IMG/VR virus record: IMGVR_UViG_3300042905_003904 | Span: 65,223 to 129,222 of that record | Direction: 5' to 3' (one strand) | From: a virus | DNA: 64,000 bases | Shown: positions 37,162-50,643 of the stretch, one piece after another | Layout: each line of letters opens with the position of its first letter | Position numbering within the stretch: position 1 is the first letter of the stretch | Notes under the pieces: generated by a model | What the model was told of the DNA's origin: nothing | The model's database searches: none | Seen by the model: only the letters and a program-made list of their open reading frames with translations | Position numbers and translations under genes: made by a program

Positions 37162-37207
37162 GGTGATATAGTAGTCAAAAATTGCAGGAATTACCAGAAA
37201 GGAAAAT

Positions 37208-37332: not shown

Positions 37333-37339
37333 AAAGAGG

Positions 37340-37507: not shown

Positions 37508-37528
37508 ATTTGAAATTATTAAAACAGC

Positions 37529-37829: not shown

Positions 37830-37879
37830 AATGTCTTAAAGAACTATAAACATCTTATATTATGTTTTCGGGAAAGCCA

Positions 37880-38491: not shown

Positions 38492-38522
38492 GATTAAATG
38501 ATATAGGGGTTTGCAAAAAGTT

Positions 38523-38744: not shown

Positions 38745-38764
38745 GTGATGTAGTAGTTGTAAAG

Positions 38765-38858
38765 TGGCGACCAGCTAAGGTGTCGATCCCTAACCCAAGT
38801 CTTAGTTGGGTCCACCTCGCTTCAAACGAGAGGTCATCGCCGGATGACTTAACTGGCC
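38765..38858 (-). tRNA. tRNA-Ser(TGA), 8/4 type
   Basis: GGCCAGTT/AGCTGGTC, loop TTTGAAG, long V-arm, G73, CCA. Confidence 0.85.
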
Positions 38859-39169
38859 TTTAAAAGTTCTGGATTTTCGTTAATGTTGCCAATTATATCC
38901 ATAGGACGAATAAACCCGCAATGATCTGTTAGTAAAATTCGAGCACGATGGTTAATGCCGAAGCTACCTTGCATGTAGACCACTAACCCCACAACATCAA
39001 ATCCTATATCTTTAGTAGCTACAATATCACCTTCGAATATTTCATTTTTGGTTAAATCAAAAATTGCAGTGCCTTCCTCGAACACCAAAGTAGGATCCTC
39101 AAAAGAATATATTCCTTTCAATGGAATATACTTCTTTAAAATTTTGTCATAGACTCGAATATTTCTCAT
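38849..39169 (-). CDS. YopX-family protein
   Basis: EIFEGDIV...IIGNINENPELL; stop lies inside the tRNA-Ser 5' end. Confidence 0.8.
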   Translation of the reverse strand: MRNIRVYDKILKKYIPLKGIYSFEDPTLVFEEGTAIFDLTKNEIFEGDIVATKDIGFDVVGLVVYMQGSFGINHRARILLTDHCGFIRPMDIIGNINENPELLKAS

Positions 39170-39170
39170 A

Positions 39171-39365
39171 TTACCACCCAATAGATTTACTGGCACTGAC
39201 CCATGCAGCAGAATCAGCATCTCGTTTAGCATACATTACTTTGGCATAATAGTCACCCACCTCTCCTTGAAACATTTCATCCCCAACTACAGCATGTCTC
39301 CATTTGGAAAGCAGTTCATATAGGCTCATATTATCAATGATTGGTTTCGCGGTTTCTAATGTCAT
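39171..39365 (-). CDS. hypothetical protein
   Basis: IDNMSLYELLSKWRHA..GDEMFQGEVGDY...SKSIGW. Confidence 0.65.
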   Translation of the reverse strand: MTLETAKPIIDNMSLYELLSKWRHAVVGDEMFQGEVGDYYAKVMYAKRDADSAAWVSASKSIGW

Positions 39366-39391
39366 AAAAGAAGTTTCCTGTATTTTATGAG

Positions 39392-39443
39392 GAAAAACAA
39401 GTCCGGATTACTGATGCTCCAAATGGTAGGATCAGTAATCCGG
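39392..39443 (-). terminator. 13-bp hairpin with downstream U-rich tract, probable terminator
   Basis: CCGGATTACTGAT/ATCAGTAATCCGG (39403-39443), then ACTTGTTTTT on minus. Confidence 0.5.
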
Positions 39444-39505
39444 TTGTGGTAAGGCTTGACCCTTCCCAGAGTTCTCGAGCTGATGGGGTCTTTTAACGAG
39501 AATCC

Positions 39506-40219
39506 TTACGACAAATTACTTAGTTCGCTCCAGACCTGAAAGAGCCGACTTTTTAAAAGTTTTAGGTGCTTCGGCGATTCTAAACAAGCCACCAAGAAAT
39601 TTTTATCATCTATAATCCATTTTGGCAAAGATTTGATGGTTCTCTTTAAAGGGGTTCGAATGAACTGTTCCAAGTCCTTTAGAAACAGTGTTTTTTGCTT
39701 GGACCATTGCGCGTCCGAGCGTTGAACCTCTAAAGTGGACGTTCTGACGCGTTTAAGATGGTTAATAAGATGGAAACGAAGAGTTCCTAAATGAGCCTCA
39801 AACTCTGCTGGTTCTAAGAAGTAATCTTTACGATAGGCTAAACCCCCAGCCTTAATAGTGGTAATTGCATCATCATAAGTTGCTGAGGTGTCCTTATAAT
39901 GCTGAACTCCATGCCAAACTTCATGCACTAGAAACTTTTCTAGATTAGCCGCATTTAAATTTTGAATCCCTTTCCAGTAAAGGACAATTTGTTTTCCGGT
40001 CCATTCCCCAACAGCCGAAATGTCTTCAGGACTAAGAACTAGGGGGATATTTTTAACTCGGTTGGTTTCCCTATTAACCACTGAAATAGAACCCAAAGAA
40101 GTTTTCTTGGTGGGTGGTTCTTGAATTTGAGACAGCTTACGACTAAACTGATGAATTTGAGAAAGAGTCTCTTCTGGAAGATCCTTGAAGGATTCTGAGA
40201 AGAAGGTTTGAAAATTCAT
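39506..40219 (-). CDS. putative zincin metallopeptidase
   Basis: LVHEVWHGVQH...YFLEPAEFEAH; TATAAATA upstream. Confidence 0.65.
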   Translation of the reverse strand: MNFQTFFSESFKDLPEETLSQIHQFSRKLSQIQEPPTKKTSLGSISVVNRETNRVKNIPLVLSPEDISAVGEWTGKQIVLYWKGIQNLNAANLEKFLVHEVWHGVQHYKDTSATYDDAITTIKAGGLAYRKDYFLEPAEFEAHLGTLRFHLINHLKRVRTSTLEVQRSDAQWSKQKTLFLKDLEQFIRTPLKRTIKSLPKWIIDDKNFLVACLESPKHLKLLKSRLFQVWSELSNLS

Positions 40220-40243
40220 ATGATGTAGTATTTATAGAGAAAA

Positions 40244-40318
40244 TGGTAACCCTACCCAAAATTGCATTGGGACTTAATCCTTAGGAGGGAATCGTGATGT
40301 CTATTTCACTATAGGGTT
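40244..40318 (-). tRNA. tRNA-Arg(CCT)
   Basis: AACCCTA/TAGGGTT, loop CTCCTAA, CCA. Confidence 0.85.
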
Positions 40319-40327
40319 ATTAAAGAG

Positions 40328-40399
40328 TGTTCCATCCAGGAATTGCACCTGGAATAAGATTTCCGCAAAATCTCGTGATGTCTATTTCACTAATGGAAC
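40328..40399 (-). tRNA. tRNA-Arg(GCG)
   Basis: GTTCCAT/ATGGAAC, loop TTGCGGA, no encoded CCA. Confidence 0.85.
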
Positions 40400-40404
40400 T
40401 AAAA

Positions 40405-40485
40405 TGGTATTCGCGATAGGGGTCGAACCTATATATTATCCAGTTAACCTTTTTACTCGTTAGAAGCGAGAGGGTATACGCGAAC
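40405..40485 (-). tRNA. atypical tRNA-Arg(TCT), no D-arm in the normal position
   Basis: GTTCGCG/CGCGAAT, loop CTTCTAA, T-loop TTCGACC, CCA. Confidence 0.75.
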
Positions 40486-40491
40486 ATTAAA

Positions 40492-40567
40492 TGGAAATCC
40501 GGGTGATATTTGCAATCACTATTAGCTATTTTGCAGATAGCCACCGATCTACTTTGGCTTCCGGATT
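40492..40567 (-). tRNA. tRNA-Cys(GCA)
   Basis: AATCCGG/CCGGATT, loop CTGCAAA, U73, CCA. Confidence 0.85.
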
Positions 40568-40572
40568 ATAAA

Positions 40573-40668
40573 TGGCAGTGAGCAGAGTATTTGCAACCCA
40601 ACCCAAGTCTTAGTTGGATCCACATACTTTCCAGGTATGGCCGATATCGCTGGTTCGGTTTACTCACT
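40573..40668 (-). tRNA. tRNA-Ser(GGA), 8/4 type
   Basis: AGTGAGTA/TGCTCACT, loop CTGGAAA, long V-arm, G73, CCA. Confidence 0.85.
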
Positions 40669-40675
40669 ATTAAAT

Positions 40676-40750
40676 TGGTCCCAATATCCGGACATGCACC
40701 GGCTTCACAGACTTATGAAATCTGGGTTTTACTATATAAACTATACTGGG
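40676..40750 (-). tRNA. tRNA-Met or Ile2 (CAT)
   Basis: CCCAGTA/TATTGGG, loop TTCATAA, CCA. Confidence 0.8.
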
Positions 40751-40761
40751 TCTTAAAATTG

Positions 40762-41229
40762 TCAATCTTGATATTCAATGATATAAGTGGAATTTCGGGT
40801 GTGAATTAAGGTTTTTTCTTCGTTCGTGCTCATAATACTAGAAGAACAGAAGTGACCGTGATCTAATACGATAGCGCCACCAACTTTTAGTGGGGAGGTT
40901 AATTTGCCTTTGTGTATACTTTTTACACCCAATTTAATTACTCGAACTCTTTTATCCCAAACTTCTCCCTTCAGATTCAAAGTGGTAACCATACCACCCA
41001 TGGAGATATTCCTGCCGTGATAATATTCAATTTCCTCCGGATTCAAATCTCGAGTGGTTGCTTTGGGAAAACGAACATCTATAAACCCTATCCCATAAAC
41101 CCAGGCACCATAAAAGTTTTCTTCGTCCTCTTTATAGACACTGCAAATATCTGGAGTGTCATTACTAATGTCACCAAGACCATGAAACGCTTTGGTGGCG
41201 AGTTTGTAAATGGATTTGAATTCTTTCAT
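40762..41229 (-). CDS. hypothetical protein within the tRNA array
   Basis: 155-aa ORF ending TRNSTY. Confidence 0.65.
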   Translation of the reverse strand: MKEFKSIYKLATKAFHGLGDISNDTPDICSVYKEDEENFYGAWVYGIGFIDVRFPKATTRDLNPEEIEYYHGRNISMGGMVTTLNLKGEVWDKRVRVIKLGVKSIHKGKLTSPLKVGGAIVLDHGHFCSSSIMSTNEEKTLIHTRNSTYIIEYQD

Positions 41230-41277
41230 GTTTCTATATTAGAATGGATTTGAAGGAAAGACCAGAAAAAGAAAGAG

Positions 41278-41368
41278 AGGTTCGCTAAGCTGCCGCCGCT
41301 TAACCCAAGTCTTAGTTGGATCCAGGAATTTAGCAAATTCCGTTCATCACTGGATGAATTAACGAACC
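41278..41368 (-). tRNA. tRNA-Ser(GCT), 8/4 type
   Basis: GGTTCGTT/AGCGAACC, loop TTGCTAA, long V-arm, no CCA. Confidence 0.85.
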
Positions 41369-41375
41369 ATGAAAG

Positions 41376-41449
41376 TGGGGCCGAGAACCAAAATTGCATT
41401 GGTATCATCTATATTACGAGTATAGGGTTTTGCATTAAACTATCTCGGC
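41376..41449 (-). tRNA. tRNA-Thr(CGT)
   Basis: GCCGAGA/TCTCGGC, loop CTCGTAA, CCA. Confidence 0.85.
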
Positions 41450-41453
41450 ATGG

Positions 41454-41558
41454 GAATACTGAATTGTGCGAAGCAGCGGGACTGCTCTGGGCGTTTATGA
41501 CTAGTCGTCCAGTCACCGCTATTCACGCGACCGAATTTCTTCGCACAATTCAATACTC
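41454..41558 (-). ncRNA. candidate ~105-nt RNA with 20-bp closing stem
   Basis: GAGTATTGAATTGTGCGAAG/CTTCGCACAATTCAGTATTC. Confidence 0.55.
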
Positions 41559-41608
41559 ATTGTTTAAATATTATCTGTTAGTTTTAGGGAATTGCAACTA
41601 ATTTAAAA

Positions 41609-41703
41609 TGGCGGCTAACGGAGTGGATGCTACCCAACCTAGTAGTGAACTAGATCCAACTATTTTCGAAATAGTGTCAGCTCGCTTGTCTGATTCATTA
41701 GCC
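41609..41703 (-). tRNA. tRNA-Ser(CGA), 8/4 type
   Basis: GGCTAATG/CGTTAGCC, loop TTCGAAA, long V-arm, G73, CCA. Confidence 0.85.
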
Positions 41704-41709
41704 ATTAAA

Positions 41710-41784
41710 TGGTAGTCGGGGAGAATTTCGCAATCTCAATCTTGGCATTCAGAGTGCCCTGCGTTACTTTTACGCCACCCGACA
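41710..41784 (-). tRNA. tRNA-Gln(CTG)
   Basis: TGTCGGG/CCCGACT, loop CTCTGAA, CCA. Confidence 0.85.
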
Positions 41785-41791
41785 ATTAAAA

Positions 41792-41877
41792 TGGAGCCTG
41801 ATGAGGGACTTGCACCCCCGGTGAGATTTCTCTACATGATTACAAATCACGTCCTATCGCTACTAAGGGAATCAGGC
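41792..41877 (-). tRNA. tRNA-Thr(TGT) with long variable arm
   Basis: GCCTGAT/ATCAGGC, stem CGTGA/TCATG, loop TTTGTAA, CCA. Confidence 0.8.
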
Positions 41878-41897
41878 ATTTTGAAATTTATTTGAAA

Positions 41898-41975
41898 TGG
41901 CATCGTCTGAGGCTCTTGCGGCCTCTAGGTCTACTTTGAGGGAGTAGTTACTCGAGCTACTTTGTATTAGACGAC
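41898..41975 (-). tRNA. tRNA-Glu(CTC)
   Basis: GTCGTCT/AGACGAT, loop CCCTCAA (C33), CCA. Confidence 0.8.
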
Positions 41976-42161
41976 ATTGTATTGTGCAGTTACATTCTCG
42001 GCAATAATCTTGGCTGCCTTGAGGTGAAGATCTAGGGGAATCAAATTCTTTAAATCCGCAAATAACATTTCTGCTAGACCACAAAAATCGTGGTAGTTGG
42101 CTCCTTCTGCTTCTTCGGAGGCTTTACGTAAAATTTCATCGATCTTGTTTTGAAGTTTCAT
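41967..42161 (-). CDS. hypothetical protein within the tRNA array
   Basis: 64-aa ORF; stop lies inside the tRNA-Glu 5' end. Confidence 0.55.
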   Translation of the reverse strand: MKLQNKIDEILRKASEEAEGANYHDFCGLAEMLFADLKNLIPLDLHLKAAKIIAENVTAQYNVV

Positions 42162-42170
42162 GAGATGATT

Positions 42171-42431
42171 TTAACTACGAGTTTTCTGGAATTCTCTTAG
42201 TTTTTCTAAATCATCCCCTTCATAAAAATCTGGAATACCGCTTGCTGGATATCCGCCGCATCTACCACAAGATAAACAAGTTCCGGCTCCTCTAATGGTT
42301 CCTACTTCACCATTATGATTGATTACTAAATTAGAACGTTCTCCATCACAGTTATCACAAGAGAACATGCTTCTTTCAGTGATAATAGAAACATAGGCTT
42401 CGGAAAGTAGTTGGGTATCTTTGTCGTTCAT
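42171..42431 (-). CDS. small Cys-rich protein
   Basis: MNDKDTQLLSEAY...CDNC...CLSCGRC; TAAATA upstream. Confidence 0.6.
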   Translation of the reverse strand: MNDKDTQLLSEAYVSIITERSMFSCDNCDGERSNLVINHNGEVGTIRGAGTCLSCGRCGGYPASGIPDFYEGDDLEKLREFQKTRS

Positions 42432-42450
42432 ACGAGTATTTAGGTTAAAG

Positions 42451-42525
42451 TGGCTGGGAATCCGGCGTTTGCATCCGGTTTTAAAGTTTTTCAAACTTTC
42501 ACACTACGTCATGTGTTAATTCCCA
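42451..42525 (-). tRNA. tRNA-Phe(GAA)
   Basis: TGGGAAT/ATTCCCA, loop TTGAAAA, CCA. Confidence 0.8.
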
Positions 42526-42534
42526 ATTAAAAAG

Positions 42535-42608
42535 TGCTAGAGGGGTGTGCTGCCCACTCCTTCCTTCGACTTATCAAGTCGGTGCATATGCTGTTTTGCT
42601 TCTCTAGC
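42535..42608 (-). tRNA. tRNA-Ile(GAT)
   Basis: GCTAGAG/CTCTAGC, loop TTGATAA, irregular T-arm, no CCA. Confidence 0.75.
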
Positions 42609-42619
42609 GTTTGAAAATA

Positions 42620-42691
42620 TTCGCCATGTTCGTGCTGCCCGAACTACTCCCAGTATGTCGAACTAGGTTTCTGCTGTTGAATTAATGGCGA
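42620..42691 (-). tRNA. tRNA-Val(GAC)
   Basis: TCGCCAT/ATGGCGA, loop TCGACAT (C33), no CCA. Confidence 0.8.
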
Positions 42692-42761
42692 GTGAAATTG
42701 GCCTGCGAATTTTAACACCCCTTGCAGGTCGGGCTACGTGCTGAACGTGTTCTTAAGAAAG

Positions 42762-42835
42762 TGGAGCCCAATCCCGGTAACTCTCCGGATTTTCACCATT
42801 ACCAATGGCGTGTATTAATTTTATACGAATCGGGC
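42762..42835 (-). tRNA. tRNA-Thr(GGT)
   Basis: GCCCGAT/ATTGGGC, loop TTGGTAA, CCA. Confidence 0.85.
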
Positions 42836-42844
42836 TTTAAAACG

Positions 42845-42916
42845 TAGTCCCGGAAAATTTTGCAATTTCAACCTTCTCTGTGTAAAAGAGTTGCTCCACT
42901 TTTGAGCTACGGGACC
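42845..42916 (-). tRNA. tRNA-Val(TAC)
   Basis: GGTCCCG/CGGGACT, loop TTTACAC, no CCA. Confidence 0.85.
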
Positions 42917-42928
42917 ATTAAATTAAAG

Positions 42929-43004
42929 CGCTGCTGGAAAGAATTGCACTCTCATAAATCCTACTTCGAAGGTAGGTGCCTGGGTCTGTTCGAGCCACAG
43001 CAGC
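42929..43004 (-). tRNA. tRNA-Arg(TCG)
   Basis: GCTGCTG/CAGCAGC, loop CTTCGAA, no CCA. Confidence 0.85.
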
Positions 43005-43019
43005 ATTATTAAAAATTAA

Positions 43020-43126
43020 TTCCACTTTATGAAGCCAGTCTCCCTCGCAGGATAAGCACTCTTCATAAACAAACACCAAACGTAAACGATTTATAGGGTT
43101 TTGACACCAGTGCAAGTGTAGTGGAA
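43020..43126 (-). ncRNA. candidate ~107-nt RNA
   Basis: Closed by TTCCACT/AGTGGAA; inner TTTATGAAG/CTTCATAAA. Confidence 0.45.
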
Positions 43127-43129
43127 ATA

Positions 43130-43204
43130 TGGAAGGCGTTATCGGTATTGCGCCGATTTATCTAACTTGGCAAGCTAGTGCATCACTTTTTATGCTTAAC
43201 ACCC
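43130..43204 (-). tRNA. tRNA-Gly(GCC)
   Basis: GGGTGTT/AACGCCT, loop TTGCCAA, U73, CCA. Confidence 0.85.
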
Positions 43205-43213
43205 ATTAAAAAT

Positions 43214-43720
43214 TTATCCCATAGTAGCAAATATATCATTTTGGATACCCTGAAGGTTTACTGCTATGTGCGGATATAAAGAAATTTCATTTGTTTTAAT
43301 GTCCTTCAAATAAATATTGGATTTTAAACAATTAGCAGGATCCTGAAACATATTTGTTGTATTTTTTAATGTTAACGGTTTATCTTTACAAAGCGTCCAG
43401 TCATGTTTATAAAAACAATCATGAGTCGGGGCTGGAATCCTAATACTACCACAACTGTTAAAGGTTACTACGGTTTTCGCTATGTCATCCAATTCTAGGA
43501 ATTTAACAAAGAACAATTTTCTTGGTAAATTTTGCACATGAATAATATGCCAATCAGAATTGAATTCGGTCTGATAATCTTTCAATGTGTCTTTATCCAT
43601 AGGAAATGTATGGAAACATTCATAATCAAACCGAACGACAGTATCCGTTGATTTACCTTTAATCTTCCACAGATAATCTTGGCGATTATATATGGTTTCC
43701 AATGAATGAATAATTCTCAT
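43214..43720 (-). CDS. hypothetical AT-rich protein within the tRNA array
   Basis: 168-aa ORF. Confidence 0.55.
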   Translation of the reverse strand: MRIIHSLETIYNRQDYLWKIKGKSTDTVVRFDYECFHTFPMDKDTLKDYQTEFNSDWHIIHVQNLPRKLFFVKFLELDDIAKTVVTFNSCGSIRIPAPTHDCFYKHDWTLCKDKPLTLKNTTNMFQDPANCLKSNIYLKDIKTNEISLYPHIAVNLQGIQNDIFATMG

Positions 43721-44015
43721 AAATTGATGTTACTATTATTTGTTCGGAATAGCACTCTCAACTTTAGAAAAACACCTCCACAAATTAGGCTTAGTAAAAG
43801 AGGCCTGCATGGTCTGGCGAAAATATAAGCTCCCATGATTTACAACCTTTGGGTATTAGTATCTGGAACGGTTATGCAGATCTGCTTAAAGGGTATCATC
43901 CTTGGGATTTTTACCCAACCACCATAAGATATCATTAGGTGTTTCTAGCACACATTCCAGGCTCATCTAGACTCATAGGATTGGATAAGATTTCGGGCTG
44001 ATGTTATTTTGAAAA

Positions 44016-44090
44016 TGGCTCCCACCCAACGATTCGAACGTTGCTCACACGAGTTAACAGCTCGGCCGCACACCTAGTGCGTTGACGGGA
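44016..44090 (-). tRNA. tRNA-Asn(GTT)
   Basis: TCCCGTC/GGTGGGA, loop CTGTTAA, TTCGAAT, G73, CCA. Confidence 0.9.
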
Positions 44091-44098
44091 TTTGAAAT

Positions 44099-44172
44099 TG
44101 GCACCCCATTCGGAGCTCTCATCCGATATTCTTGCGTGACAAGCAAGTATGATAATCATTCATCAATGGGGT
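44099..44172 (-). tRNA. tRNA-Asp(GTC)
   Basis: ACCCCAT/ATGGGGT, loop TTGTCAC, G73, CCA. Confidence 0.85.
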
Positions 44173-44179
44173 ATTAAAT

Positions 44180-44256
44180 TGGTCCGAAAGGTAGGCGCTT
44201 CCCCTACATATATCCGCACATCAAGCGGGTCCTTTATATTTCTCAGGCACTCTCGG
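44180..44256 (-). tRNA. tRNA with GAT anticodon (Ile?), atypical
   Basis: CCGAGAG/CTTTCGG, loop TTGATGT (G37), CCA. Confidence 0.7.
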
Positions 44257-44265
44257 TTTGTAAAT

Positions 44266-44357
44266 TGGTAGAAGGTGTCGGTAACGCTCCGACTCGAGGC
44301 CCACATCTAGGGCGAAACGGGGTATAAAACCGTCTTGGCTACTTAGCACAACCTTCC
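44266..44357 (-). tRNA. tRNA with TAT anticodon (Ile?) and long variable arm
   Basis: GGAAGGT/ACCTTCT, loop TTTATAC, V-arm GCCC/GGGC, CCA. Confidence 0.7.
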
Positions 44358-44366
44358 ATTGAAATA

Positions 44367-44444
44367 TGGGGTAAACGACCGCATCTGCCGCGGCTATAAC
44401 TCCGGTTCACAGCCGGATCCCTATCTACTTTGGGTTCGTCTACC
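44367..44444 (-). tRNA. tRNA-His(GTG)
   Basis: G-1:C73, GTAGACG/CGTTTAC, loop CTGTGAA, CCA. Confidence 0.9.
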
Positions 44445-44453
44445 ATTTGAAAT

Positions 44454-44840
44454 TGGCCGTTTGTGGACTTCAACCACTTCCCGGATAACGGTTTTAATCC
44501 GGTTTCAGTTCTCATAGGTTTGCGGCCCGAAGCTGCCTGAAATTTAAGCCAGTTACTCGAGCTCCCTATTTGCGGCACTTAACCGTCAAGTTTAGTGGAC
44601 TCCGCCATTTGGGGACCTGTTTCGCTGACACCACCAAATTGACGTTCGGTGGAAATTAATTACCAAAGAAACCCCTCATTCTGAACTGGAAGCTACGACA
44701 TCTTCAAGAGACGTTTCCAGTGACACGGGGTTCTTTGGCTTCTATCTATGGATGTCAAATTATATCCGTTTGTGCTTCCTCTTACACTAAGTCTCCTGAT
44801 TGATTTCAGAAGCGCCGGTCCTTGAACCCGAACTAAACGG
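44454..44840 (-). ncRNA. ~390-nt structured non-coding block (one or several RNAs)
   Basis: Long hairpin 44663-44738; 3' end GTGG-TTGAAGT-CCAC-AAACGG-CCA; 5' CCGTTT. Confidence 0.5.
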
Positions 44841-44844
44841 AAAT

Positions 44845-44919
44845 TGGCACGCGCTGATCTGCTTGCAAGATCCCACGACCTTTTGGAGAGGTTGTCGCCA
44901 CTATGGAACATGAGCGCGT
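44845..44919 (-). tRNA. tRNA-Trp(CCA)
   Basis: ACGCGCT/AGCGCGT, loop CTCCAAA, G73, CCA. Confidence 0.85.
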
Positions 44920-44925
44920 ATGAAA

Positions 44926-45000
44926 TGGTAGCCCCACCTGGTAACCCTCCAGGTTCTATGGTTTCAAAGACCACTGCATTTAGTTCTATGCTATGGGGCA
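44926..45000 (-). tRNA. tRNA-Gln(TTG)
   Basis: TGCCCCA/TGGGGCT, loop CTTTGAA, CCA. Confidence 0.85.
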
Positions 45001-45009
45001 ATTATAAAA

Positions 45010-45086
45010 TGGTGAGCTCCCAGGGTATCGCGCCCTGCATCTCCAATTTAAAAGATTGGTGCATACTCTATGGCAGCTTGGAGCCC
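45010..45086 (-). tRNA. tRNA-Lys(TTT)
   Basis: GGGCTCC/GGAGCTC, loop CTTTTAA, CCA. Confidence 0.85.
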
Positions 45087-45093
45087 ATAAAAT

Positions 45094-45167
45094 TGGTGAG
45101 TCGTCCTGGTAATTCTCCAGGTTCTTCTGTTTAAGAGACAGGGGCCTTAATTTTAGGCGAACAACCC
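45094..45167 (-). tRNA. tRNA-Lys(CTT)
   Basis: GGGTTGT/ACGACTC, loop CTCTTAA, CCA. Confidence 0.85.
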
Positions 45168-45180
45168 ATATTGAAATTAA

Positions 45181-45264
45181 TCGTATACTCCGGTGTTGCT
45201 CCGAGCGTAATCTTTCGATATCTAGATCCCAAATCTAGCGGGGTCTCTGGCTCCCTCGTATACG
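45181..45264 (-). tRNA. tRNA-Pro(TGG) with long variable arm
   Basis: CGTATAC/GTATACG, loop TTTGGGA, V-arm ATC-GAAA-GAT, no CCA. Confidence 0.8.
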
Positions 45265-45274
45265 TTTTATAAAT

Positions 45275-45359
45275 TGGTAGTCCCGACAGGCATCGAACCT
45301 GCAAGCATTTCTGCGTAAGTTTCTAAAACTTATATGTTTGCCAATTTCATCACAGGACC
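45275..45359 (-). tRNA. tRNA-Leu(TAG)
   Basis: GGTCCTG/CGGGACT, loop TTTAGAA, V-arm, CCA. Confidence 0.9.
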
Positions 45360-45368
45360 ATTAAATAG

Positions 45369-45451
45369 TGTCGATAGTTGGAGTTGCACCAACACGCCCT
45401 TTCGGACAAAAGTTTTTAAGACTTTCATGGCTTCTGTTACATCATACCGAC
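45369..45451 (-). tRNA. tRNA-Leu(TAA)
   Basis: GTCGGTA/TATCGAC, loop CTTAAAA, V-arm, no CCA. Confidence 0.85.
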
Positions 45452-45459
45452 TTTGAAAT

Positions 45460-45543
45460 TGGTCCTCATAGTAGAAATTGCATCTACACTCCCGAAGGAA
45501 CTTGTTTTTGAGACAAGCGCGGCTGCTGTTACGCCATATGAGG
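45460..45543 (-). tRNA. tRNA-Leu(CAA)
   Basis: CCTCATA/TATGAGG, loop CTCAAAA, V-arm, CCA. Confidence 0.85.
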
Positions 45544-45556
45544 TTTATTGAAATTT

Positions 45557-45724
45557 CTCAAATACCACCTCATCCGTTTGCGATCGGATACTACACACTA
45601 AACCAGCCCGGTTCGTGCTTCGGCAGTTTTCCCTATTTGGGCTCCTACTAACCCCGGCAGGTAATTAGTAGATCTTTGAGGTAGACCCCCGCGTCTGTTA
45701 TTGCGCCAGCAGATGGCATTTGAA
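45557..45724 (-). ncRNA. candidate ~168-nt RNA
   Basis: 14-bp closing stem TTCAAATGCCATCT/AGGTGGTATTTGAG. Confidence 0.5.
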
Positions 45725-45729
45725 ATTAA

Positions 45730-45800
45730 TTCAGTGGTTCGATGCTGCAGGAGTGCCTGGGCTGAATCGATTGACTTCTAGTTCCTGGCGAAACACTGAA
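45730..45800 (-). ncRNA. candidate ~71-nt RNA
   Basis: Closed by TTCAGTG/CACTGAA; inner TTCG/CGAA and CAGGA/TCCTG. Confidence 0.4.
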
Positions 45801-45802
45801 AT

Positions 45803-45880
45803 TGGTAGCGTATACCGGTGCTGCCCCGGTTCTAAGTTCTCCTTGAAAGGGAGGGAAGCATGCTGTTGCTCATATACGCC
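45803..45880 (-). tRNA. tRNA-Glu(TTC)
   Basis: GGCGTAT/ATACGCT, loop CTTTCAA, CCA. Confidence 0.85.
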
Positions 45881-45889
45881 ATTTGAAAT

Positions 45890-45986
45890 TGGAGCGATTA
45901 GGGGATTTGCACCCACACCTTTAGTCTAGACGACTACTGTTCTATGAATCCCTAAAGAGGAAATTCTCTAATTAAACTACCCTCGC
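45890..45986 (-). tRNA. aberrant tRNA-like gene (loop CGTCTAG) with a hairpin inserted in the D-loop
   Basis: GCGA/TCGC-T-CCA, T-loop TGCAAAT, weak acceptor stem. Confidence 0.55.
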
Positions 45987-45992
45987 ATTAAA

Positions 45993-46083
45993 TGGTGGGA
46001 GCAAACTGAATCGCACAGTAAGCCTCGACTTCCAATCCTTGGTTAAGGTGCGGTTTTACAGACCGCCGATTGGGGTTACTCCC
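45993..46083 (-). tRNA. atypical tRNA-Tyr(GTA), no D-arm in the normal position
   Basis: GGGAGTA/TGCTCCC, loop CTGTAAA, A73, CCA. Confidence 0.75.
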
Positions 46084-46094
46084 ATTTGAAATTA

Positions 46095-46166
46095 TTGCAG
46101 GTATGGGAATTGCACCCATGCATAACGGCTTATGAGACCGTGGACTTACTACTTGTCGAACCCGCG
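46095..46166 (-). tRNA. tRNA-fMet-like (CAT)
   Basis: CGCGGGT/ACCTGCA with C1:A72 mismatch, loop CTCATAA, no CCA. Confidence 0.85.
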
Positions 46167-46233
46167 ATTTGAAATCATACCCAAATAGATCTCTCAAGTC
46201 TTTTTTAAGGACCATCTATCCAGGTTTTGAAAG

Positions 46234-46318
46234 TTACAGAGGCGGGTATTGATCCACTTTTGGGCATTTGCACCTTCCAGGTTATGGGCCTGGCGAAACA
46301 CGTTTTCTCTACTCTGTT
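46234..46318 (-). tRNA. second initiator-like tRNA (CAT) with extra arm
   Basis: AACAGAG/CTCTGTA 1:72 mismatch, CCAGG-CCCATAA-CCTGG, irregular T-arm. Confidence 0.65.
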
Positions 46319-46330
46319 ATTTAAAGACTA

Positions 46331-46411
46331 TCAAGAAGGTCCGATGCTATTATCATTGCGATTTTATAGAATGGTGATAAAGCCACCCTCATCCGACGAA
46401 ACACTTCCTGA
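46331..46411 (-). ncRNA. candidate ~80-nt RNA
   Basis: Closed by TCAGGAAG/CTTCTTGA. Confidence 0.35.
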
Positions 46412-46428
46412 ATCTGTATAAATTGAAG

Positions 46429-46502
46429 TGGAATATCTGGGTTACGCTCCCAGTTCTGCGCATTGCAAGTGCACCGTGTTACCTATTAATCACTAATACC
46501 CC
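46429..46502 (-). tRNA. tRNA-Ala(TGC)
   Basis: GGGGTAT/ATATTCC with G3:U70, loop CTTGCAA, no CCA. Confidence 0.88.
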
Positions 46503-46520
46503 TTTACTCTATGAAATTTG

Positions 46521-46635
46521 TTTGGTGTGAAATTTTACCCGCGATTATTTTCCAGCTTTGCGATAACCCCTTAGATTAGACCCTCAGGGAAAGGCGGTTC
46601 CTTCAACATCGCAAAGGTCCTTTATAGGCACCAAA
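46521..46635 (-). ncRNA. candidate ~115-nt RNA
   Basis: TTTGGTG/CACCAAA closing stem; inner CTTTGCGAT/ATCGCAAAG. Confidence 0.45.
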
Positions 46636-46639
46636 TTAT

Positions 46640-46749
46640 TTTCCTGAAAGTGTTTGTGGACTGCGGGAAACTGCCTCCGCCCGACCTTTGATCACCCAAG
46701 TGGATGAGAAAGAAATTGCATCTTTCGACTCCCAGCCCCTTTCAGGAAA
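46640..46749 (-). ncRNA. candidate ~110-nt RNA
   Basis: 11-bp perfect closing stem TTTCCTGAAAG/CTTTCAGGAAA. Confidence 0.5.
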
Positions 46750-46750
46750 T

Positions 46751-47059
46751 TGGGCAGGATTTGTTCCCATTACTTCCAGGGTCAGCTTTTAGCCTGCGGA
46801 GCTGTGCTTCTTTCGAAATCGTCTAATTTTAACACGCAGACTAGAAACTGCGAAGTCTTTGGGAGGCTTTCATAATCTGCCGGTTCACCATTCCGGACTG
46901 ACGAATTATGTTTTGCTGATTACGCTTTGCGGGCTTCTCTCAGATACAATCTTTTGTTCTGGAGTGATTGAACTCCAGTATCTTTATGCGCTATTAGAGC
47001 ACACTATCGAGGAGAGTAATACATTTATCCCCGTTTCTACATCTGCCCGTTTCACAGGC
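46751..47059 (-). ncRNA. candidate ~300-nt multi-hairpin RNA
   Basis: GGGCAG/CTGCCC long-range pairing; hairpins CTGGAGT/ACTCCAG, CATAAT/ATTATG, CGCAG/CTGCG. Confidence 0.45.
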
Positions 47060-47072
47060 ATACTAGAGAAAA

Positions 47073-47147
47073 TGGAGCGACATGTGGGTAACCCACCCAC
47101 TTAAACCTGTTTGGAAAACAGGTGCATCAGTTTTCTGCCAATGTCGC
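47073..47147 (-). tRNA. tRNA-Gly(TCC)
   Basis: GCGACAT/ATGTCGC, loop TTTCCAA, U73, CCA. Confidence 0.88.
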
Positions 47148-47157
47148 ATTTGAAATT

Positions 47158-47252
47158 TGGTGGCCGGACATGTTCGTCATTATGAAGCTTACGGATGCCT
47201 GTGGCGGGGCTGGGTTATTCACCAACCCGAATACACTTTTCAGACGCCGACC
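47158..47252 (-). ncRNA. 95-nt RNA with acceptor-like stem and ACCA end
   Basis: GGTCGG/CCGGCC-A-CCA; no canonical T-arm. Confidence 0.5.
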
Positions 47253-47268
47253 ATTATTTGAAATTCTT

Positions 47269-47323
47269 AGGGAGGAGCCCGTCTACTGCTGGAATTTTCC
47301 ACGACAGTTATTTGCTCCTCCCT
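47269..47323 (-). ncRNA. 55-nt hairpin unit
   Basis: 10-bp AGGGAGGAGC/GCTCCTCCCT. Confidence 0.4.
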
Positions 47324-47359
47324 TATCATTTTAACCTACTATATTACTTAAACTTCCTC

Positions 47360-47495
47360 CGCAAATTGAGGTGTGCTTGCTTACACTACATAGTAGAACT
47401 ACTACATCACTTACCATTCCGTTCTGGTGCCTACGTGCTGTAGGATCGCTTTTTATGTGGTTTGTAGCACCACTGAATGCATTTTTAAATTTGCG
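47360..47495 (-). ncRNA. candidate ~135-nt RNA, first unit after the attenuator
   Basis: Closed by CGCAAATT/AATTTGCG. Confidence 0.3.
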
Positions 47496-47498
47496 AAC

Positions 47499-47524
47499 AA
47501 AAAACCCGACCTTTCGATCGGGTT
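47499..47524 (-). terminator. intrinsic terminator (attenuator) at the head of the tRNA array
   Basis: AACCCGATC-GAAA-GGTCGGGTT-TTTT on minus. Confidence 0.88.
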
Positions 47525-47572
47525 CTCTAAAGTCTGACTACTTCTTTACAATTTTCAGACTTTAGAGAACCC
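47520..47572 (-). promoter_or_regulatory. antiterminator hairpin, mutually exclusive with the terminator
   Basis: Perfect 18-bp inverted repeat GGGTTCTCTAAAGTCTGA/TCAGACTTTAGAGAACCC; the 3' arm shares AACCC with the terminator 5' arm. Confidence 0.8.
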
Positions 47573-47689
47573 TTCGGCTAACGTTGGATTAAAGAGCGCG
47601 GGTTGCTTCCCTTCAATCGACCAGCCGCGAGCATCACATCCCACTATATGGGTTTGATAACTTTTTGAACTGGAGACTACTGCTTTCAT
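47555..47689 (-). CDS. putative 44-aa leader peptide containing all 20 amino acids
   Basis: MKAVVSSSKSYQTHIVGCDARGWSIEGKQPALFNPTLAEGFSKV*; last codons and TGA form the antiterminator 5' arm; TAAATA 13 nt upstream. Confidence 0.75.
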   Translation of the reverse strand: MKAVVSSSKSYQTHIVGCDARGWSIEGKQPALFNPTLAEGFSKV

Positions 47690-47702
47690 TTACTGTTACT
47701 AT

Positions 47703-47730
47703 TATTTACCATTTAATCGGGAATTTCAAC
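47703..47730 (-). promoter_or_regulatory. putative promoter of the leader and tRNA array
   Basis: TTGAAATTCCC...TGG-TAAATA upstream of the leader ATG; TAAATA precedes many genes here. Confidence 0.5.
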
Positions 47731-47829
47731 AAACTTTCTTTGAATTTGTTTTGTTCTTCAACTACTTGGCTCATTTAACTTCTTCTAATATCTAGGAGTT
47801 TCAGGGAAACTGCAACGGGAATTTTAAAA

Positions 47830-48318
47830 TTAAGTGACTTTTCCACCGATTCGACCTTTTGCTGTTCGGAACCGTCCATTTGCCGTCACCTGTTTCAAAT
47901 TCTTGAAAAGAACCTGCTGCAACTCTGCAACTAGTTGATCTTTGTCTGCAATCGGCATTTTCAATTTTTCCAAGTCCGTCACTACATTTTGAACAGCGCT
48001 ATTAATATATGATCGATATTTCGCTTCTTGCGACATCCGAGAAGCGCCTTCTTTTTGGGAAGTTCCTGCTTTTTGTAATGATTGTGCTTTTTGTCCCCAT
48101 TTACTTCTGGATAGATCGTGTCCAACCACTTTTCCGACGCCTGCTGCTGCTTTGTTCAAAACACTCCCAGCCGCTTGTTTGGCGCTTCCCGCAATTTGGT
48201 GCCCTGCTCCTTTTGCTGCTGCGATGGCTTGGGATCCCCGAGCTTTAAGACGGTCCCACAATCCTTCCTGAACTAATTGATAGGCTTCTTCGAGAGGTTT
48301 TTGGTCTGGCTGGATCAT
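47830..48318 (-). CDS. Ala/Lys/Gly-rich protein, probable internal head protein
   Basis: LEEAY..VQEGLWDRLKAR N-terminus; TAAATA upstream. Confidence 0.6.
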   Translation of the reverse strand: MIQPDQKPLEEAYQLVQEGLWDRLKARGSQAIAAAKGAGHQIAGSAKQAAGSVLNKAAAGVGKVVGHDLSRSKWGQKAQSLQKAGTSQKEGASRMSQEAKYRSYINSAVQNVVTDLEKLKMPIADKDQLVAELQQVLFKNLKQVTANGRFRTAKGRIGGKVT

Positions 48319-48520
48319 AAGACTATTTATCCAACCAACTACCTATAAATCCAACCAGTCCAAATCAATCACAGTTTCCCTGGAATGCTTATCAACGCGG
48401 ATGATCGCTGTGTGGGAATGGTTTAAAATTTCTACAACCTCTACAATCATTCCTACCTGATAAGGAACTGCTTTGTTCTTTTCATTGATCCGACCCTGCC
48501 GAAATGTGGTTTGTTTCATA

Positions 48521-48913
48521 TTAACAGTCTTTGCAGAGGCCGTCTCTTGTAACCGGACCATTACCACAATTTTCACACGGCTCTCCTATTTGCGGCTTAT
48601 AGATGTCATCCAATTTGTGATGCAGCATTAAAATATAGTCTTCCACAGAACTTCCACGATTCTTTACAAATGAAGCCATTTCTTCTGGATTATTTCGGGC
48701 ATGAACGCCTTGAGCAATTTCTAAAAGGTGTTCTAAACTTTCCCTGTCTTCCGCTGATTCTTCCACCTGAGAGGCTCTTTCATCTACTTCACACTTACCA
48801 CAGAACCCAGATTCATTCGCCTCGGCATCACAATTCTCACACTTTTTCTTCTTTTCTTTGGGCATTGCATCGTCCGTGGTTTCTTCGATAATATCTAAAA
48901 TGCTCTTTTTCAT
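48521..48913 (-). CDS. protein with two small Cys4 motifs
   Basis: CENC...CGKC and CENC...CKDC. Confidence 0.6.
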   Translation of the reverse strand: MKKSILDIIEETTDDAMPKEKKKKCENCDAEANESGFCGKCEVDERASQVEESAEDRESLEHLLEIAQGVHARNNPEEMASFVKNRGSSVEDYILMLHHKLDDIYKPQIGEPCENCGNGPVTRDGLCKDC

Positions 48914-48966
48914 CTATCTTATTTAGTTTCATTTCCTGCTAATTTACTATAAATATAAGTTATACT

Positions 48967-50643
48967 ATGTATTTTGACACAGAAATTCGGAAACAGCACG
49001 TTCTTTTGGAATCGACCAAAAAAGAACCGCGAGCACATTTGTCCCATCTTGAGGACCTTTCTATTGAATCTGGGAAAGAAGGATTTGAAGAATTTGGGAT
49101 GCATGTGGGTGAAATTTTGAAGAGGGTCGAGGGGCTGGAATCCGAACAACACATCGGAGAGAAGATTGATGGAAGTATGTCTGTGTATTTTGGAATTGAT
49201 CCTCGCCCCACTTTCAAAGGACAATTTAGTGTGGCCACCAAATCGGCGCTTTCCAAGGAACCCAAATTGATTCATTCCTTGGACGAAATTGAAGCTCTTT
49301 ACCCGGATAAAAATGAAACATTCAAAACCCATTTAGCCGAAGTTTTCACCAATCTACAAAAGGCCTATGATTATAGTGGAAAGATTTATATGGGGGATTT
49401 GCTGTTTTCCAGTGGCCGACAGAAAAGAACCACAGAGATTGATGGGGTTCCATATCTTTATTTCAAACCGAATACGCTGGTTTATGCGGTGGAAGAGGAT
49501 CCAAAATCTGAATTATATAATCGTCTGAAGGATGCTTCTTTGGGTATTTTTATTCATGATTCATATACCGCAGAATCTAAAGAAGGGAAATTGTCCCTAA
49601 CATCTGCTGGGAAAAATATAGACGGCTTGATTCAAAAGGGAAAGGAGAATGGGGTATTTATTGAAGGTTCCCACATTGAAAATGTAAACCTAAAGGTTCC
49701 GAAGAAAACATATAATTTAATTCAACGGCTAATGAAGAAATTGGATAAGGAAAAGAATAGTATTCCCGCTGAATTTGATGCGTATTGGGGTAGCTCACCG
49801 GCATTAGATCGGATGAAGAAATATATTAATCAGCAGATTCATCTACCAGACGGGGGCATCTTTGGTAATTCTGGCCGTAGTTTCAATGCCTATAAGATTC
49901 TAGAAGAATTCGTTCCATTCATCCGCGGCTCTTATAAAAATCACAAGAATGCAGAACTGGTGGTTTCTACCTTGAAAAAATTCGAAGAACCCTTTGTCCA
50001 TCTCTTAAAGAGTTTTTACTGGATGCTACAAATCAAAAACCAACTGCTGGATTTGTTTGACCAGGTGGAATCCAAAATTGGTAAGACCTTTATCCAACAA
50101 GAAGATGGAAGTTTTGTTCCGACAAGAGGGGAAGGCTTTGTCTTTATGCACCAAGGAAAATATGTGAAACTGGTAGATCGGCTAAGCTTCACTAAAAACA
50201 ATAAAATCTTCGGCAGATTCAACGAATCATTGAAGGTGGTATTAGAATACAACCAGGATAAAAAACTGAAAGGTTCTTACTGTTGGATGGATAAGACTGG
50301 AAAATTTTATTATTTTGAACAAGGGGAGGAACATCATGGAGATGCTGCAATCCGAATCTTACAAGACCATTTTCCTCAGATATATAAGTCTCTCAAATTC
50401 AATCAGGATTCGGATGCCCCAATTTATGATGCCCTGTTCAATTTAGGGTTTATTCGCATAGCATCCCATGATGATAAAACCTATCTAATTCAGTCGCCTA
50501 AACCTCCCACACCTCCTCAGCGGCGAAGTGTTATTGATTTTTGTATTGAAGCCGGATTTCAAACTATTGAATGGGATTCTTATAGTTGGACTGGAAGAGA
50601 TAGCCGAATCATTTGGCAAAACGAATCTGCTGGAGTTTCCTAA
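48967..50643 (+). CDS. large phage protein with ligase-like KxDG motif
   Basis: HLSHLED...EKIDGS...GDLLF...FKPNTLVY...GEGFV...KLVDRLSF; TATAAATA upstream. Confidence 0.65.
   Translation: MYFDTEIRKQHVLLESTKKEPRAHLSHLEDLSIESGKEGFEEFGMHVGEILKRVEGLESEQHIGEKIDGSMSVYFGIDPRPTFKGQFSVATKSALSKEPKLIHSLDEIEALYPDKNETFKTHLAEVFTNLQKAYDYSGKIYMGDLLFSSGRQKRTTEIDGVPYLYFKPNTLVYAVEEDPKSELYNRLKDASLGIFIHDSYTAESKEGKLSLTSAGKNIDGLIQKGKENGVFIEGSHIENVNLKVPKKTYNLIQRLMKKLDKEKNSIPAEFDAYWGSSPALDRMKKYINQQIHLPDGGIFGNSGRSFNAYKILEEFVPFIRGSYKNHKNAELVVSTLKKFEEPFVHLLKSFYWMLQIKNQLLDLFDQVESKIGKTFIQQEDGSFVPTRGEGFVFMHQGKYVKLVDRLSFTKNNKIFGRFNESLKVVLEYNQDKKLKGSYCWMDKTGKFYYFEQGEEHHGDAAIRILQDHFPQIYKSLKFNQDSDAPIYDALFNLGFIRIASHDDKTYLIQSPKPPTPPQRRSVIDFCIEAGFQTIEWDSYSWTGRDSRIIWQNESAGVS

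Follow-up and report, generated by a model that had tools for sequence, protein, structure and literature searches.

A tRNA-Tyr gene in a phage tRNA array predicted to replace the D hairpin with a helix between its 5' linker and variable-arm loop

The tRNA-Tyr gene and its predicted parts

The 64,000-nucleotide (nt) stretch of viral DNA considered here, referred to throughout as the window, covers positions 65,223 to 129,222 of the IMG/VR record IMGVR_UViG_3300042905_003904. Its minus strand carries a dense array of transfer RNA (tRNA) genes, and among these lies a 91-nt gene with the anticodon GTA. This gene is probably a structurally rewired class-II tRNA-Tyr, functioning as the working tyrosine member of a mobile tRNA array. 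As predicted from the sequences of the gene and its relatives, there is no D hairpin, and a D-stem-like helix is formed by the 5' linker and the loop of the variable arm. The gene and its parts, in window positions and in 5' to 3' order along the gene, are as follows.

45993..46083, minus strand: rewired tRNA-Tyr gene, 91 nt, with encoded A73 and CCA (covariance model R2, 74.7 bits, E 1.6e-19)
46076..46083, minus strand: acceptor 5' strand GGGAGTAA (8 nt; GGGAGTA + A), pairing with 45997-46004
46068..46073, minus strand: 5' strand of helix P2, CCAATC, in the place of the D arm and leading into the anticodon stem
46050..46066, minus strand: anticodon arm GCGGT CTGTAAA ACCGC, with the anticodon GTA at 46057-46059
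46045..46048, minus strand: 5' strand of helix P3 (variable-arm stem), CCTT, with its partner GAGG at 46023-46026
46032..46037, minus strand: 3' strand of P2, GATTGG, inside the variable-arm loop
46027..46031, minus strand: L3 run AAGTC, D-loop-like, directly after P2
46023..46026, minus strand: 3' strand of P3, GAGG, just before the T stem region
46005..46019, minus strand: T arm with a stem of four base pairs (bp), ACTG/CAGT, and the loop TGCGATT, with G at position 55
45997..46004, minus strand: acceptor 3' strand TTGCTCCC
45993..45996, minus strand: discriminator A and encoded CCA

Short connectors join these parts: CC precedes the P2 5' strand, a single G the anticodon arm and a single A the CCTT strand, with AACCAAG between CCTT and GATTGG and CTT between GAGG and the T arm. 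Only 10 nt run from acceptor base 7 to the anticodon stem, and no hairpin lies between the acceptor and anticodon stems. The gene possesses an acceptor stem, a 7-nt anticodon loop with U33 and a purine at 37, a 7-nt T-loop and an NCCA end; it has neither the D stem-loop of a canonical cloverleaf nor detectability by RF00005. ARAGORN reports no gene at the locus with default settings and none on the minus strand at relaxed thresholds, and Rfam, including RF00005, gives no match there at E ≤ 1 (36000-50000 searched). An earlier note on this DNA, prepared from the letters alone, had described an acceptor, a 10-nt linker, a GTA arm, an ATTGG complementary to the linker CCAAT, an AAGT and a T-loop with G55, and all of these lie where it had placed them.

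Folded as a single sequence the gene contains CCAAUC/GAUUGG, but its z score is only -1.54, and 16 of 200 shuffled sequences fold as well. Because the single-sequence fold is not distinguished from shuffles, the case rests on relatives. The covariance model R2, built from the copies of other phages without that of the window, recovers the gene at the score listed above with 23 of 23 modelled pairs standard, and finds no other strong match in the 64 kilobases (kb); by this model the gene is more than a chance resemblance. Metagenome contigs of four runs were also compared. The gene is identical in X4 and X5, a contig piece of X9 covering it carries two differences (one at 45931, outside the gene, the other unplaced), and X6 has, within different flanks, a diverged version of the 5' portion of the gene. 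Where the contigs from the four runs cover the region they show no joints, and hence no sign of a spliced or shorter form of the DNA.

Helices conserved among relatives

Relatives were collected by several routes. A scan for an exact 18-mer returned 45 loci, 20 of which were run through R1, a covariance model of the family, with L026 being recognised as a family member; the remaining loci were left out as duplicates judged by eye. A gapped pattern derived from motifs that the gene shares with the X6 copy found six IMG/VR loci, and a broad pattern fixed only CC, a single C three free bases further on, and the anticodon arm. In IMG/VR the broad pattern yielded 52 loci: 50 full-length loci of the same design, one truncated locus (L087) and one canonical tRNA-Tyr (L006). 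The 50 phage loci together with the window comprise 31 distinct sequences; L026, contributed by R1, and 13 bacterial copies further enlarge the family, which totals 45 distinct sequences from IMG/VR phages, Planctomycetota and one contig of a Verrucomicrobiota metagenome-assembled genome (MAG). Their length ranges from 88 to 94 nt. The truncated locus (IMGVR_UViG_3300025083_003781) is normal up to the P2 3' strand and then continues as unrelated AT-rich sequence, being either truncated or interrupted.

The linker helix, P2, comprises 6 bp, CCAATC/GATTGG in the window. Relatives hold CCTGTC/GATAGG, CCCGTC/GATGGG, CCGGTC/GATCGG, CCCTAC/GTAGGG, CCATAC/GTATGG, CCACTC/GAGTGG, CCCCAC/GTGGGG, CCTTTC/GAAAGG, CCTCTC/GAGAGG and others at this place, giving 14 distinct hexamers, each with its own complement. 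The two strands are complementary at six of six positions in 30 of the 31 distinct sequences, and mismatched sequence pairings reach six of six in 132 of 864 cases. In a plain MAFFT alignment of 17 sequences 100% of P2 cells are paired, with the pair 13-50 appearing as CG (6), AU (4), GC (3), UA (3) and UG (1). None of 500 shuffles reached the P2 measures, and sliding the partner by one to three columns leaves 32-53% paired, compared with 94% in register. Model-fitted alignments give 100% pairing in 32 sequences and 99.3% in 46 rows, with five of the six pairs changed on both sides. Without any imposed structure, RNAalifold predicts from the 17 sequences an 8-bp acceptor, P2, a 6-bp anticodon stem and a 4-bp T stem, the sixth anticodon-stem pair being G17-U35 in 16 of the 17. 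By this strong covariation P2 is judged a real helix, kept by compensatory changes. The earlier note had read it as 5 bp, CCAAT/ATTGG, and had set its covariation among homologues as a check: the pairing stands and the covariation is strong, with the helix extending to a sixth pair.

A second helix, P3, pairs the bases right after the anticodon stem with those right before the T stem (CCTT/GAGG in the window). It begins 0-1 nt after the anticodon stem, at the site of the class-II variable-arm stem, and occurs in relatives as ACCT/AGGT, ACTC/GAGT, GGCA/TGCC, TGCC/GGCG, TGTCA/TGACA, TGAC/GTCG, TGTCT/AGACG, TGCT/AGCG and ACCTGA/TCAGGT. At least three contiguous pairs are found at the anchored positions in 31 of 31 sequences. 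In the core of the helix, pair 36-69 is GC in 12, AU in 11, GU in 1 and other in 8, pair 37-68 is CG in 21, GC in 4, UA in 3, AU in 1 and other in 3, and pair 38-67 is 100% paired. These comparisons provide good evidence for P3, weaker than that for P2. Because the P2 3' strand sits inside the P3 loop, the two helices would cross as a pseudoknot. The CCTT/AAGG hairpin that had been read from this copy can form in it, but is not conserved: the conserved partner of CCTT is GAGG, and in most relatives, where the equivalent run is TACCTTAAGA and leaves no loop, the hairpin is impossible.

The acceptor and T stems depart from the usual division. Acceptor pair 8-80 covaries (GC 37, AU 3, UG 3, CG 1 and UA 1 of 46 rows), base 8 is always paired, its partner being the base that would otherwise close the T stem, and 16 of 17 sequences have no fifth T-stem pair. 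With base 8 paired and the fifth T-stem pair missing, the branch is of the 8/4 type, an 8-bp acceptor and a 4-bp T stem making 12 bp in total. In a normal tRNA the elbow is held by the contacts G18-psi55 and G19-C56. In the family, the L3 run and the T-loop change together: where the T-loop has G55 (xGC type: AGCGTTA, TGCGATT and similar), L3 starts with AAG in 20 of 20, and where it is of the TTC type, GG is found at L3 in 22 of 24. Such co-change is what a substitute for the D-loop would do. The description of the gene in the earlier note as having a relocated D arm is a fair one, since the partner strand of the linker precedes a D-loop-like run that covaries with the T-loop.

Bacterial tyrosyl-tRNA synthetase (TyrRS) has the identity set A73, G1-C72, G34/U35 and a long variable arm. 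A73 is present in all 45 family sequences, G1-C72 in 44 of 46 rows and the GTA anticodon throughout, so that A73, G1-C72, GUA and a variable-arm stem, the sequence features of bacterial tRNA-Tyr identity, are found together. Of the 45 sequences, 33 encode CCA, which agrees with what is seen for the other tRNAs of these arrays.

Further searches were made among cultured phages and through protein-coding genes. A near search of cultured phages with 44000-47000 found no match, and blastn with a family member found nothing at E ≤ 1e-3 in a test made weak by the short query; at E ≤ 10 the only matches were to the anticodon arms of ordinary tRNA-Tyr genes. One candidate, L122 in Lactobacillus phage Satyr (MG744354.1, about 75110-75220), was rejected on its D region of normal length; it is an unannotated tRNA-Tyr-like gene with a CGCGAAT T-loop, lying between annotated tRNA genes. 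A search of viral contigs with a DUF6267 protein gave no relatives, and a terminase search gave one contig, 56% identical, whose end carries just one tRNA, an ordinary one. An alignment of five homologues found one 8.5-kb contig among metagenome contigs, ending at window position 47402, short of the gene, none among genome contigs, and one 40%-identical contig without tRNAs among viral contigs.

The array, the spread of the design and a second family

The window makes up the latter half of an IMG/VR virus contig of 129,222 bases, whose completeness CheckV estimates at 61%. Its genes include those for a large terminase, tail sheath, ribonucleotide reductase, CCA-adding enzyme and DNA ligase. 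Terminases of T4-like phages (cyanobacteria, rhizobia, Caulobacter) share no more than about 35% identity with that of the window, and near-identical DNA is present in lake-water and sediment metagenomes; the phage host is presumably a freshwater bacterium, not E. coli.

The tRNA array occupies 38.7-47.2 kb of the window on the minus strand, its units being spaced by a ATTTCAAA-type spacer. A scan made for this analysis counts 33 cloverleaf-type units as well as odd ones at 38769-47147, representing most amino acids at about 4 per kb over 8.4 kb, which places the array within the definition of a tRNA array unit (at least 20 tRNA genes, at least 2 per kb). Default ARAGORN calls just 10 genes in the array and Rfam 14 above threshold. 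The earlier note had called the gene the only tRNA-Tyr, and for the contig three approaches bear this out: the scan identifies one unit with a GTA anticodon in 38000-47600, the whole 129-kb contig has 12 RF00005 matches, all within the array and none at the Tyr locus, and R1 has a single strong match in the contig. No gene of the TyrRS family (PF00579) was found in the 129-kb, 61% complete contig; therefore charging would need the host enzyme. A spacer motif with 25 matches in 38500-47500 adjoins the gene.

46084..46092, minus strand: spacer motif ATTTCAAAT, directly upstream of the tRNA-Tyr gene and recurring between array units

Several other features of the array were noted. The tRNA at 46096-46166 (minus strand, just upstream) has a C1-A72 mismatch, a CAT anticodon and the T-loop TGCAATT, with CCA not encoded; the mismatch and the anticodon are as in bacterial initiator tRNA. 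Elbows across 38769-47147 (minus strand) are mostly non-canonical, the T-loops TGCAAYT, GGCAGCA, AGAATTA, AGGGTTA, AGCGTTA and CGCGATA accompanying D-loops without GG (e.g. AAGTAG, AACAGCA). TTCGA-type T-loops with GG occur only in a few array tRNAs (Asn, Leu-TAG and Arg-TCT), and D-loop and T-loop types appear coupled. Long arms in the variable region are carried by tRNA-Ile(TAT) (44266-44357, 23 nt), tRNA-Pro(TGG) (45178-45264, 16 nt) and tRNA-Thr(TGT) (41792-41877, 15 nt), all on the minus strand and of isotypes that are normally class I; ARAGORN also calls a 91-92-nt tRNA-Ile(TAT) in L071, L072, L074, L075 and L125. Three spacer-bounded units on the minus strand, 45890-45986 (97 nt), 47158-47254 (97 nt) and 45555-45717 (about 160 nt), could be matched to neither of the two folds, cloverleaf or rewired, and have no Rfam match at E ≤ 1; the first of them ends with a TGCAAAT T-loop and TCCA. 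Two copies of the 13-mer GTGTTTCGCCAGG are present (about 46290 and about 45795, minus strand), each opening an unassigned stretch between tRNAs. At the spacer at 45890 one X5 contig has about 163 extra letters, and the contigs of X9 stop at it from either side. Units seem to be gained and lost at the spacers of the array.

The rewired design is also found in bacteria. Applied to one genome per GTDB species, the broad pattern gave nine loci, of which eight are family members and one a chance match. Seven of the eight are from Planctomycetota, one of these lying on the complete chromosome of Singulisphaera sp. PoT; the eighth is from a Verrucomicrobiota MAG contig. R1 was positive in 6 of 151 Planctomycetota genomes sampled and in 1 of 151 Verrucomicrobiota genomes, the latter being the query genome itself, and exactly one rewired copy was present in each of five genomes checked. 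All bacterial copies lie inside dense tRNA arrays, with 4-34 ARAGORN genes per locus; counts of 15-34 such genes fall within 2.8-8 kb. In Singulisphaera (G002) the array is chromosomal (7913922-7917536; L154, L155) and holds at least 28 tRNA genes. It is flanked by a Ser/Thr kinase gene, a glycogen phosphorylase-like gene, two GroEL genes and DnaJ; the 10 proteins scanned beside it include neither an integrase nor a phage protein.

In phages as in bacteria the rewired gene is always a member of a dense array, where it takes the tyrosine slot, and ARAGORN calls no tRNA-Tyr in any of 14 array loci (8 bacterial and 6 phage). Ordinary tRNA-Tyr genes do exist elsewhere in some of these genomes. Singulisphaera and a second Isosphaeraceae genome (G003) both have an ordinary 82-nt tRNA-Tyr in a Thr-Tyr-Gly-Thr cluster, and in the complete 424-kb phage G310 two ordinary ones lie a few hundred bases away from the rewired copy. 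A loose pattern for canonical tRNA-Tyr, run on four phage records, returned mostly noise, the two genes of G310 being the only ones confirmed, and the absence of canonical tRNA-Tyr refers to the present contig and to the array loci, not to whole phage genomes. Judged from these sequences, coexistence with an ordinary tRNA-Tyr and the patchy spread point to an accessory role. Coexistence fits a spare or special copy; it does not show resistance.

A second rewired tRNA is present in the window and has a covarying family of its own.

40405-40485, minus strand: rewired tRNA-Arg(UCU), in the same array

Seven bases (TAT ACC C) precede its anticodon arm; after the arm come five bases, GGT and a D-loop-like run, TAACTGGA, and the T-loop is the canonical TTCGACC. 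A scan with the exact anticodon arm returned 54 loci, 11 of them with the rewired design (L157, L160, L164, L169, L170, L176, L183, L185, L193, L196 and L202). In seven distinct sequences the 3-bp helix takes the forms ACC/GGT, CGG/CCG, CCC/GGG and CTC/GAG, is 100% paired, has three of three pairs changed on both sides, and is followed by the D-loop-like run TAAnTGGA. As the Arg(UCU) family has the same rewiring, the rewiring is not peculiar to tyrosine. An Arg(TCT)-like tRNA at L118:3808-3891, which has a 6-bp linker helix (CCCGAC/GTTGGG) and scores 40 bits with R1, the Tyr model, may be a third variant of the design.

Proposed function, rival explanations and known systems

In the proposed structure P2 would stack on the anticodon stem and act as a D stem with swapped connectivity. 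Since its 5' strand passes without a break into the 5' side of the anticodon stem, that strand would correspond to the 3' half of an ordinary D stem. The 5' half and the D-loop would have their counterparts in the P2 3' strand and L3, with the variable-arm stem P3 closing the rebuilt D domain. The L3 run would dock on the T-loop as an elbow, preserving an L shape of normal size, and the six P2 and six anticodon-stem pairs with the 8/4 branch would give dimensions like those of selenocysteine tRNA (tRNA-Sec) and allo-tRNAs. The transcript would presumably be excised from the array, charged by host TyrRS, as A73, G1-C72, GUA and the variable-arm stem suggest, and used to read UAY codons. The leading guess as to the advantage of the design is that it escapes a factor recognising the normal D-arm/core of tRNA-Tyr, for example a host or rival nuclease.

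Several points weigh against a rewired, working tRNA-Tyr. Most family members were found by a pattern fixing the anticodon arm, and since the search fixed that arm, its conservation is partly by design; among five copies found by the model only, with no anticodon-arm pattern, three have the CTGTAAA loop and the other two the GTA anticodon, with different anticodon stems and the same overall design. P3 is short, the contrast between own and other partners is modest (mean 4.3 versus 3.5 contiguous pairs), and in columns that were not structure-aligned 77% of its cells are paired. The model-fitted alignments (A5, A6) lean towards P2, and the three-dimensional reading is inferred. Because a canonical tRNA-Tyr coexists in three genomes, the rewired copy may be something other than a plain translational tRNA, and some irregular tRNAs of clusters are described as charged yet not used in translation (Mukai et al., PMC5389517).

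The last two points also favour a tRNA-like RNA acting outside translation, whether as a decoy or sponge, a regulator, or a substrate of a non-ribosomal enzyme that uses aminoacyl-tRNA, as does the very unusual core. This explanation is improbable, given that the gene fills the tyrosine slot of near-complete arrays, with no other tRNA-Tyr in the 14 array loci or the contig, and that A73, G1-C72, GUA and the 12-bp acceptor/T branch are kept and CCA is so often encoded. No conserved partner gene was seen either, the Singulisphaera flanks consisting of the kinase, phosphorylase, GroEL and DnaJ genes. A purely local fold of the window copy, with P2 and the CCTT/AAGG hairpin and neither P3 nor a pseudoknot, is more doubtful again. 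The extra bases CCA allow the hairpin in this copy, and the minimum-free-energy structure (-27.2 kcal/mol) has P2 with a 3-bp CUU/AAG hairpin, nested models with P2 only and P3 only reaching -23.8 and -21.6; but most relatives cannot form the hairpin, the P3 partners covary, and the folding program, whose result is matched by shuffles as often as described above, cannot score pseudoknots. Decay of a tRNA-Tyr that lost its D arm is scarcely credible. Standard tRNA finders give no call, as they might for a pseudogene, but every helix is kept through compensatory changes in the 45 distinct relatives, the sequence is identical in contigs of the further runs X4 and X5, and the acceptor, anticodon loop, A73 and CCA are intact. 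The earlier note had likewise argued against decay, and the compensatory changes in the helix between linker and ATTGG agree with it.

A rewired, working tRNA-Tyr would also accommodate a narrower explanation, put forward in the earlier note, in which the gene is a nuclease-proof replacement that tRNA-Tyr-depleting nucleases of a host or rival, such as PtuAB of retron Ec78/Eco7, cannot recognise or cut, so that translation of phage genes would go on. PtuAB depletes tRNA-Tyr, and a phage tRNA-Tyr rescues infection (PMC11555353); tRNA array units have been discussed as putative anti-defence elements (PMC12803027). Coexistence with canonical tRNA-Tyr in Singulisphaera, the second Isosphaeraceae genome and phage G310 suggests an added property, the sporadic occurrence in Planctomycetota resembles that of accessory genes, and a second isoacceptor, Arg(UCU), carries the same rewiring. 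Phage T5, however, is reported to escape through a strong promoter and high tRNA-Tyr abundance, with direct cleavage by PtuAB not yet shown in that report (PMC11555353), and the anticodon loop, which anticodon nucleases usually attack, has the common sequence CTGTAAA. Since T5 evades through abundance, resistance of the tRNA itself is not an established mechanism, and this explanation, though a reasonable one, is considered unlikely, if less so than the preceding ones.

All known bacterial tRNAs are stated to adopt the cloverleaf (PMC11551756). A literature search found no description of such a rewired tRNA, and a rewired, pseudoknotted tRNA-Tyr has apparently not been described before. The cloverleaf is treated as universal outside organelles, and a conserved pseudoknotted tRNA-Tyr without a D hairpin would be a natural counter-example, which is directly testable because the gene is present in many phages and in cultivable Planctomycetota (e.g. 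Singulisphaera sp. PoT). From such a tRNA one could learn what RNase P, TyrRS, EF-Tu and the ribosome truly require of the core; orthogonal tRNAs could be built on it as a natural scaffold, and missing tRNA-Tyr calls in the annotation of phages and arrays would be explained. If the design does block tRNA-targeting nucleases, it would represent a structural counter-defence, unlike anticodon-loop mutations or overexpression. A wider proposal, plausible and still tentative, is that bacterial-type translation includes a second, non-cloverleaf tRNA fold that has arisen in at least two isoacceptors (Tyr and Arg-UCU) and spreads with the mobile arrays of phages and Planctomycetota as functional spares escaping recognition of the normal core; standard tRNA finders would systematically miss it, and gaps in tRNA-Tyr would partly be artefacts. 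In this fold the counterpart of the 3' D-stem half would come straight after the acceptor, while that of the 5' half would sit with the D-loop in the variable region, in tRNA-Tyr as a pseudoknot with the variable arm.

Among known systems, tRNA array units share with the rewired gene its setting in dense arrays. Arrays have been reported in Planctomycetes, with array copies differing from chromosomal ones, and the accounts in these two papers are of cloverleaf variants only, as far as their available text extends (PMC4758250, PMC12803027). tRNA-Tyr is among the rarest array isotypes, at 2% (Tran et al., PMC4758250), a rarity that undetected rewired copies could partly explain. The canonical class-II tRNA-Tyr likewise has GUA in a 7-nt loop with U33 and A37, A73, G1-C72, a 12-bp acceptor/T branch, a variable-arm stem directly after the anticodon stem, CCA either encoded or added, and a location among tRNA genes. 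The rewired gene differs from it in the missing D hairpin, the predicted pseudoknot, the 8/4 rather than 7/5 branch and, in this copy, the G55 of the T-loop. The (8/4) tRNAs and allo-tRNAs resemble it in their branch, long variable arm, longer anticodon branch and occurrence in phage tRNA clusters, but are described as keeping a D stem-loop (long stem, tetraloop) and the cloverleaf, which the rewired tRNA-Tyr does not; 8/4 tRNAs are reported there for Ser, His and allo-tRNAs, with Tyr not mentioned in the main text (PMC5389517).

Loss of the D hairpin and a short connector between acceptor and anticodon are shared with the mitochondrial tRNAs that lack a D arm, such as mt-tRNA-Ser(AGY/UCU) (PMC7609411, PMC4013460). 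These are short, flexible and AT-rich organelle tRNAs, with adapted partner proteins, a simple replacement loop and neither a variable arm nor a pseudoknot, whereas the rewired tRNA-Tyr is longer than normal and GC-balanced, has its linker paired, and would rebuild both the D-stem-like helix and the elbow contact. A review of non-canonical tRNAs places D-arm loss in mitochondria, phages being unmentioned in its available portions (PMC7609411). tRNA-Sec, with its 6-bp D stem and 4-base D-loop (PMC7609411), is alike in having a 6-bp D-type helix followed by bases contacting the T-loop, a long variable arm and an extended acceptor stem. It differs in its normal D hairpin, 13-bp acceptor/T branch and UCA anticodon. 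In the tRNA-like structures of plant RNA viruses, pseudoknots present a tyrosine-accepting, tRNA-shaped end; these structures are the 3' ends of eukaryotic RNA virus genomes and have no decoding anticodon arm, whereas the rewired tRNA-Tyr is a free-standing gene in the tRNA arrays of DNA phages and bacteria.

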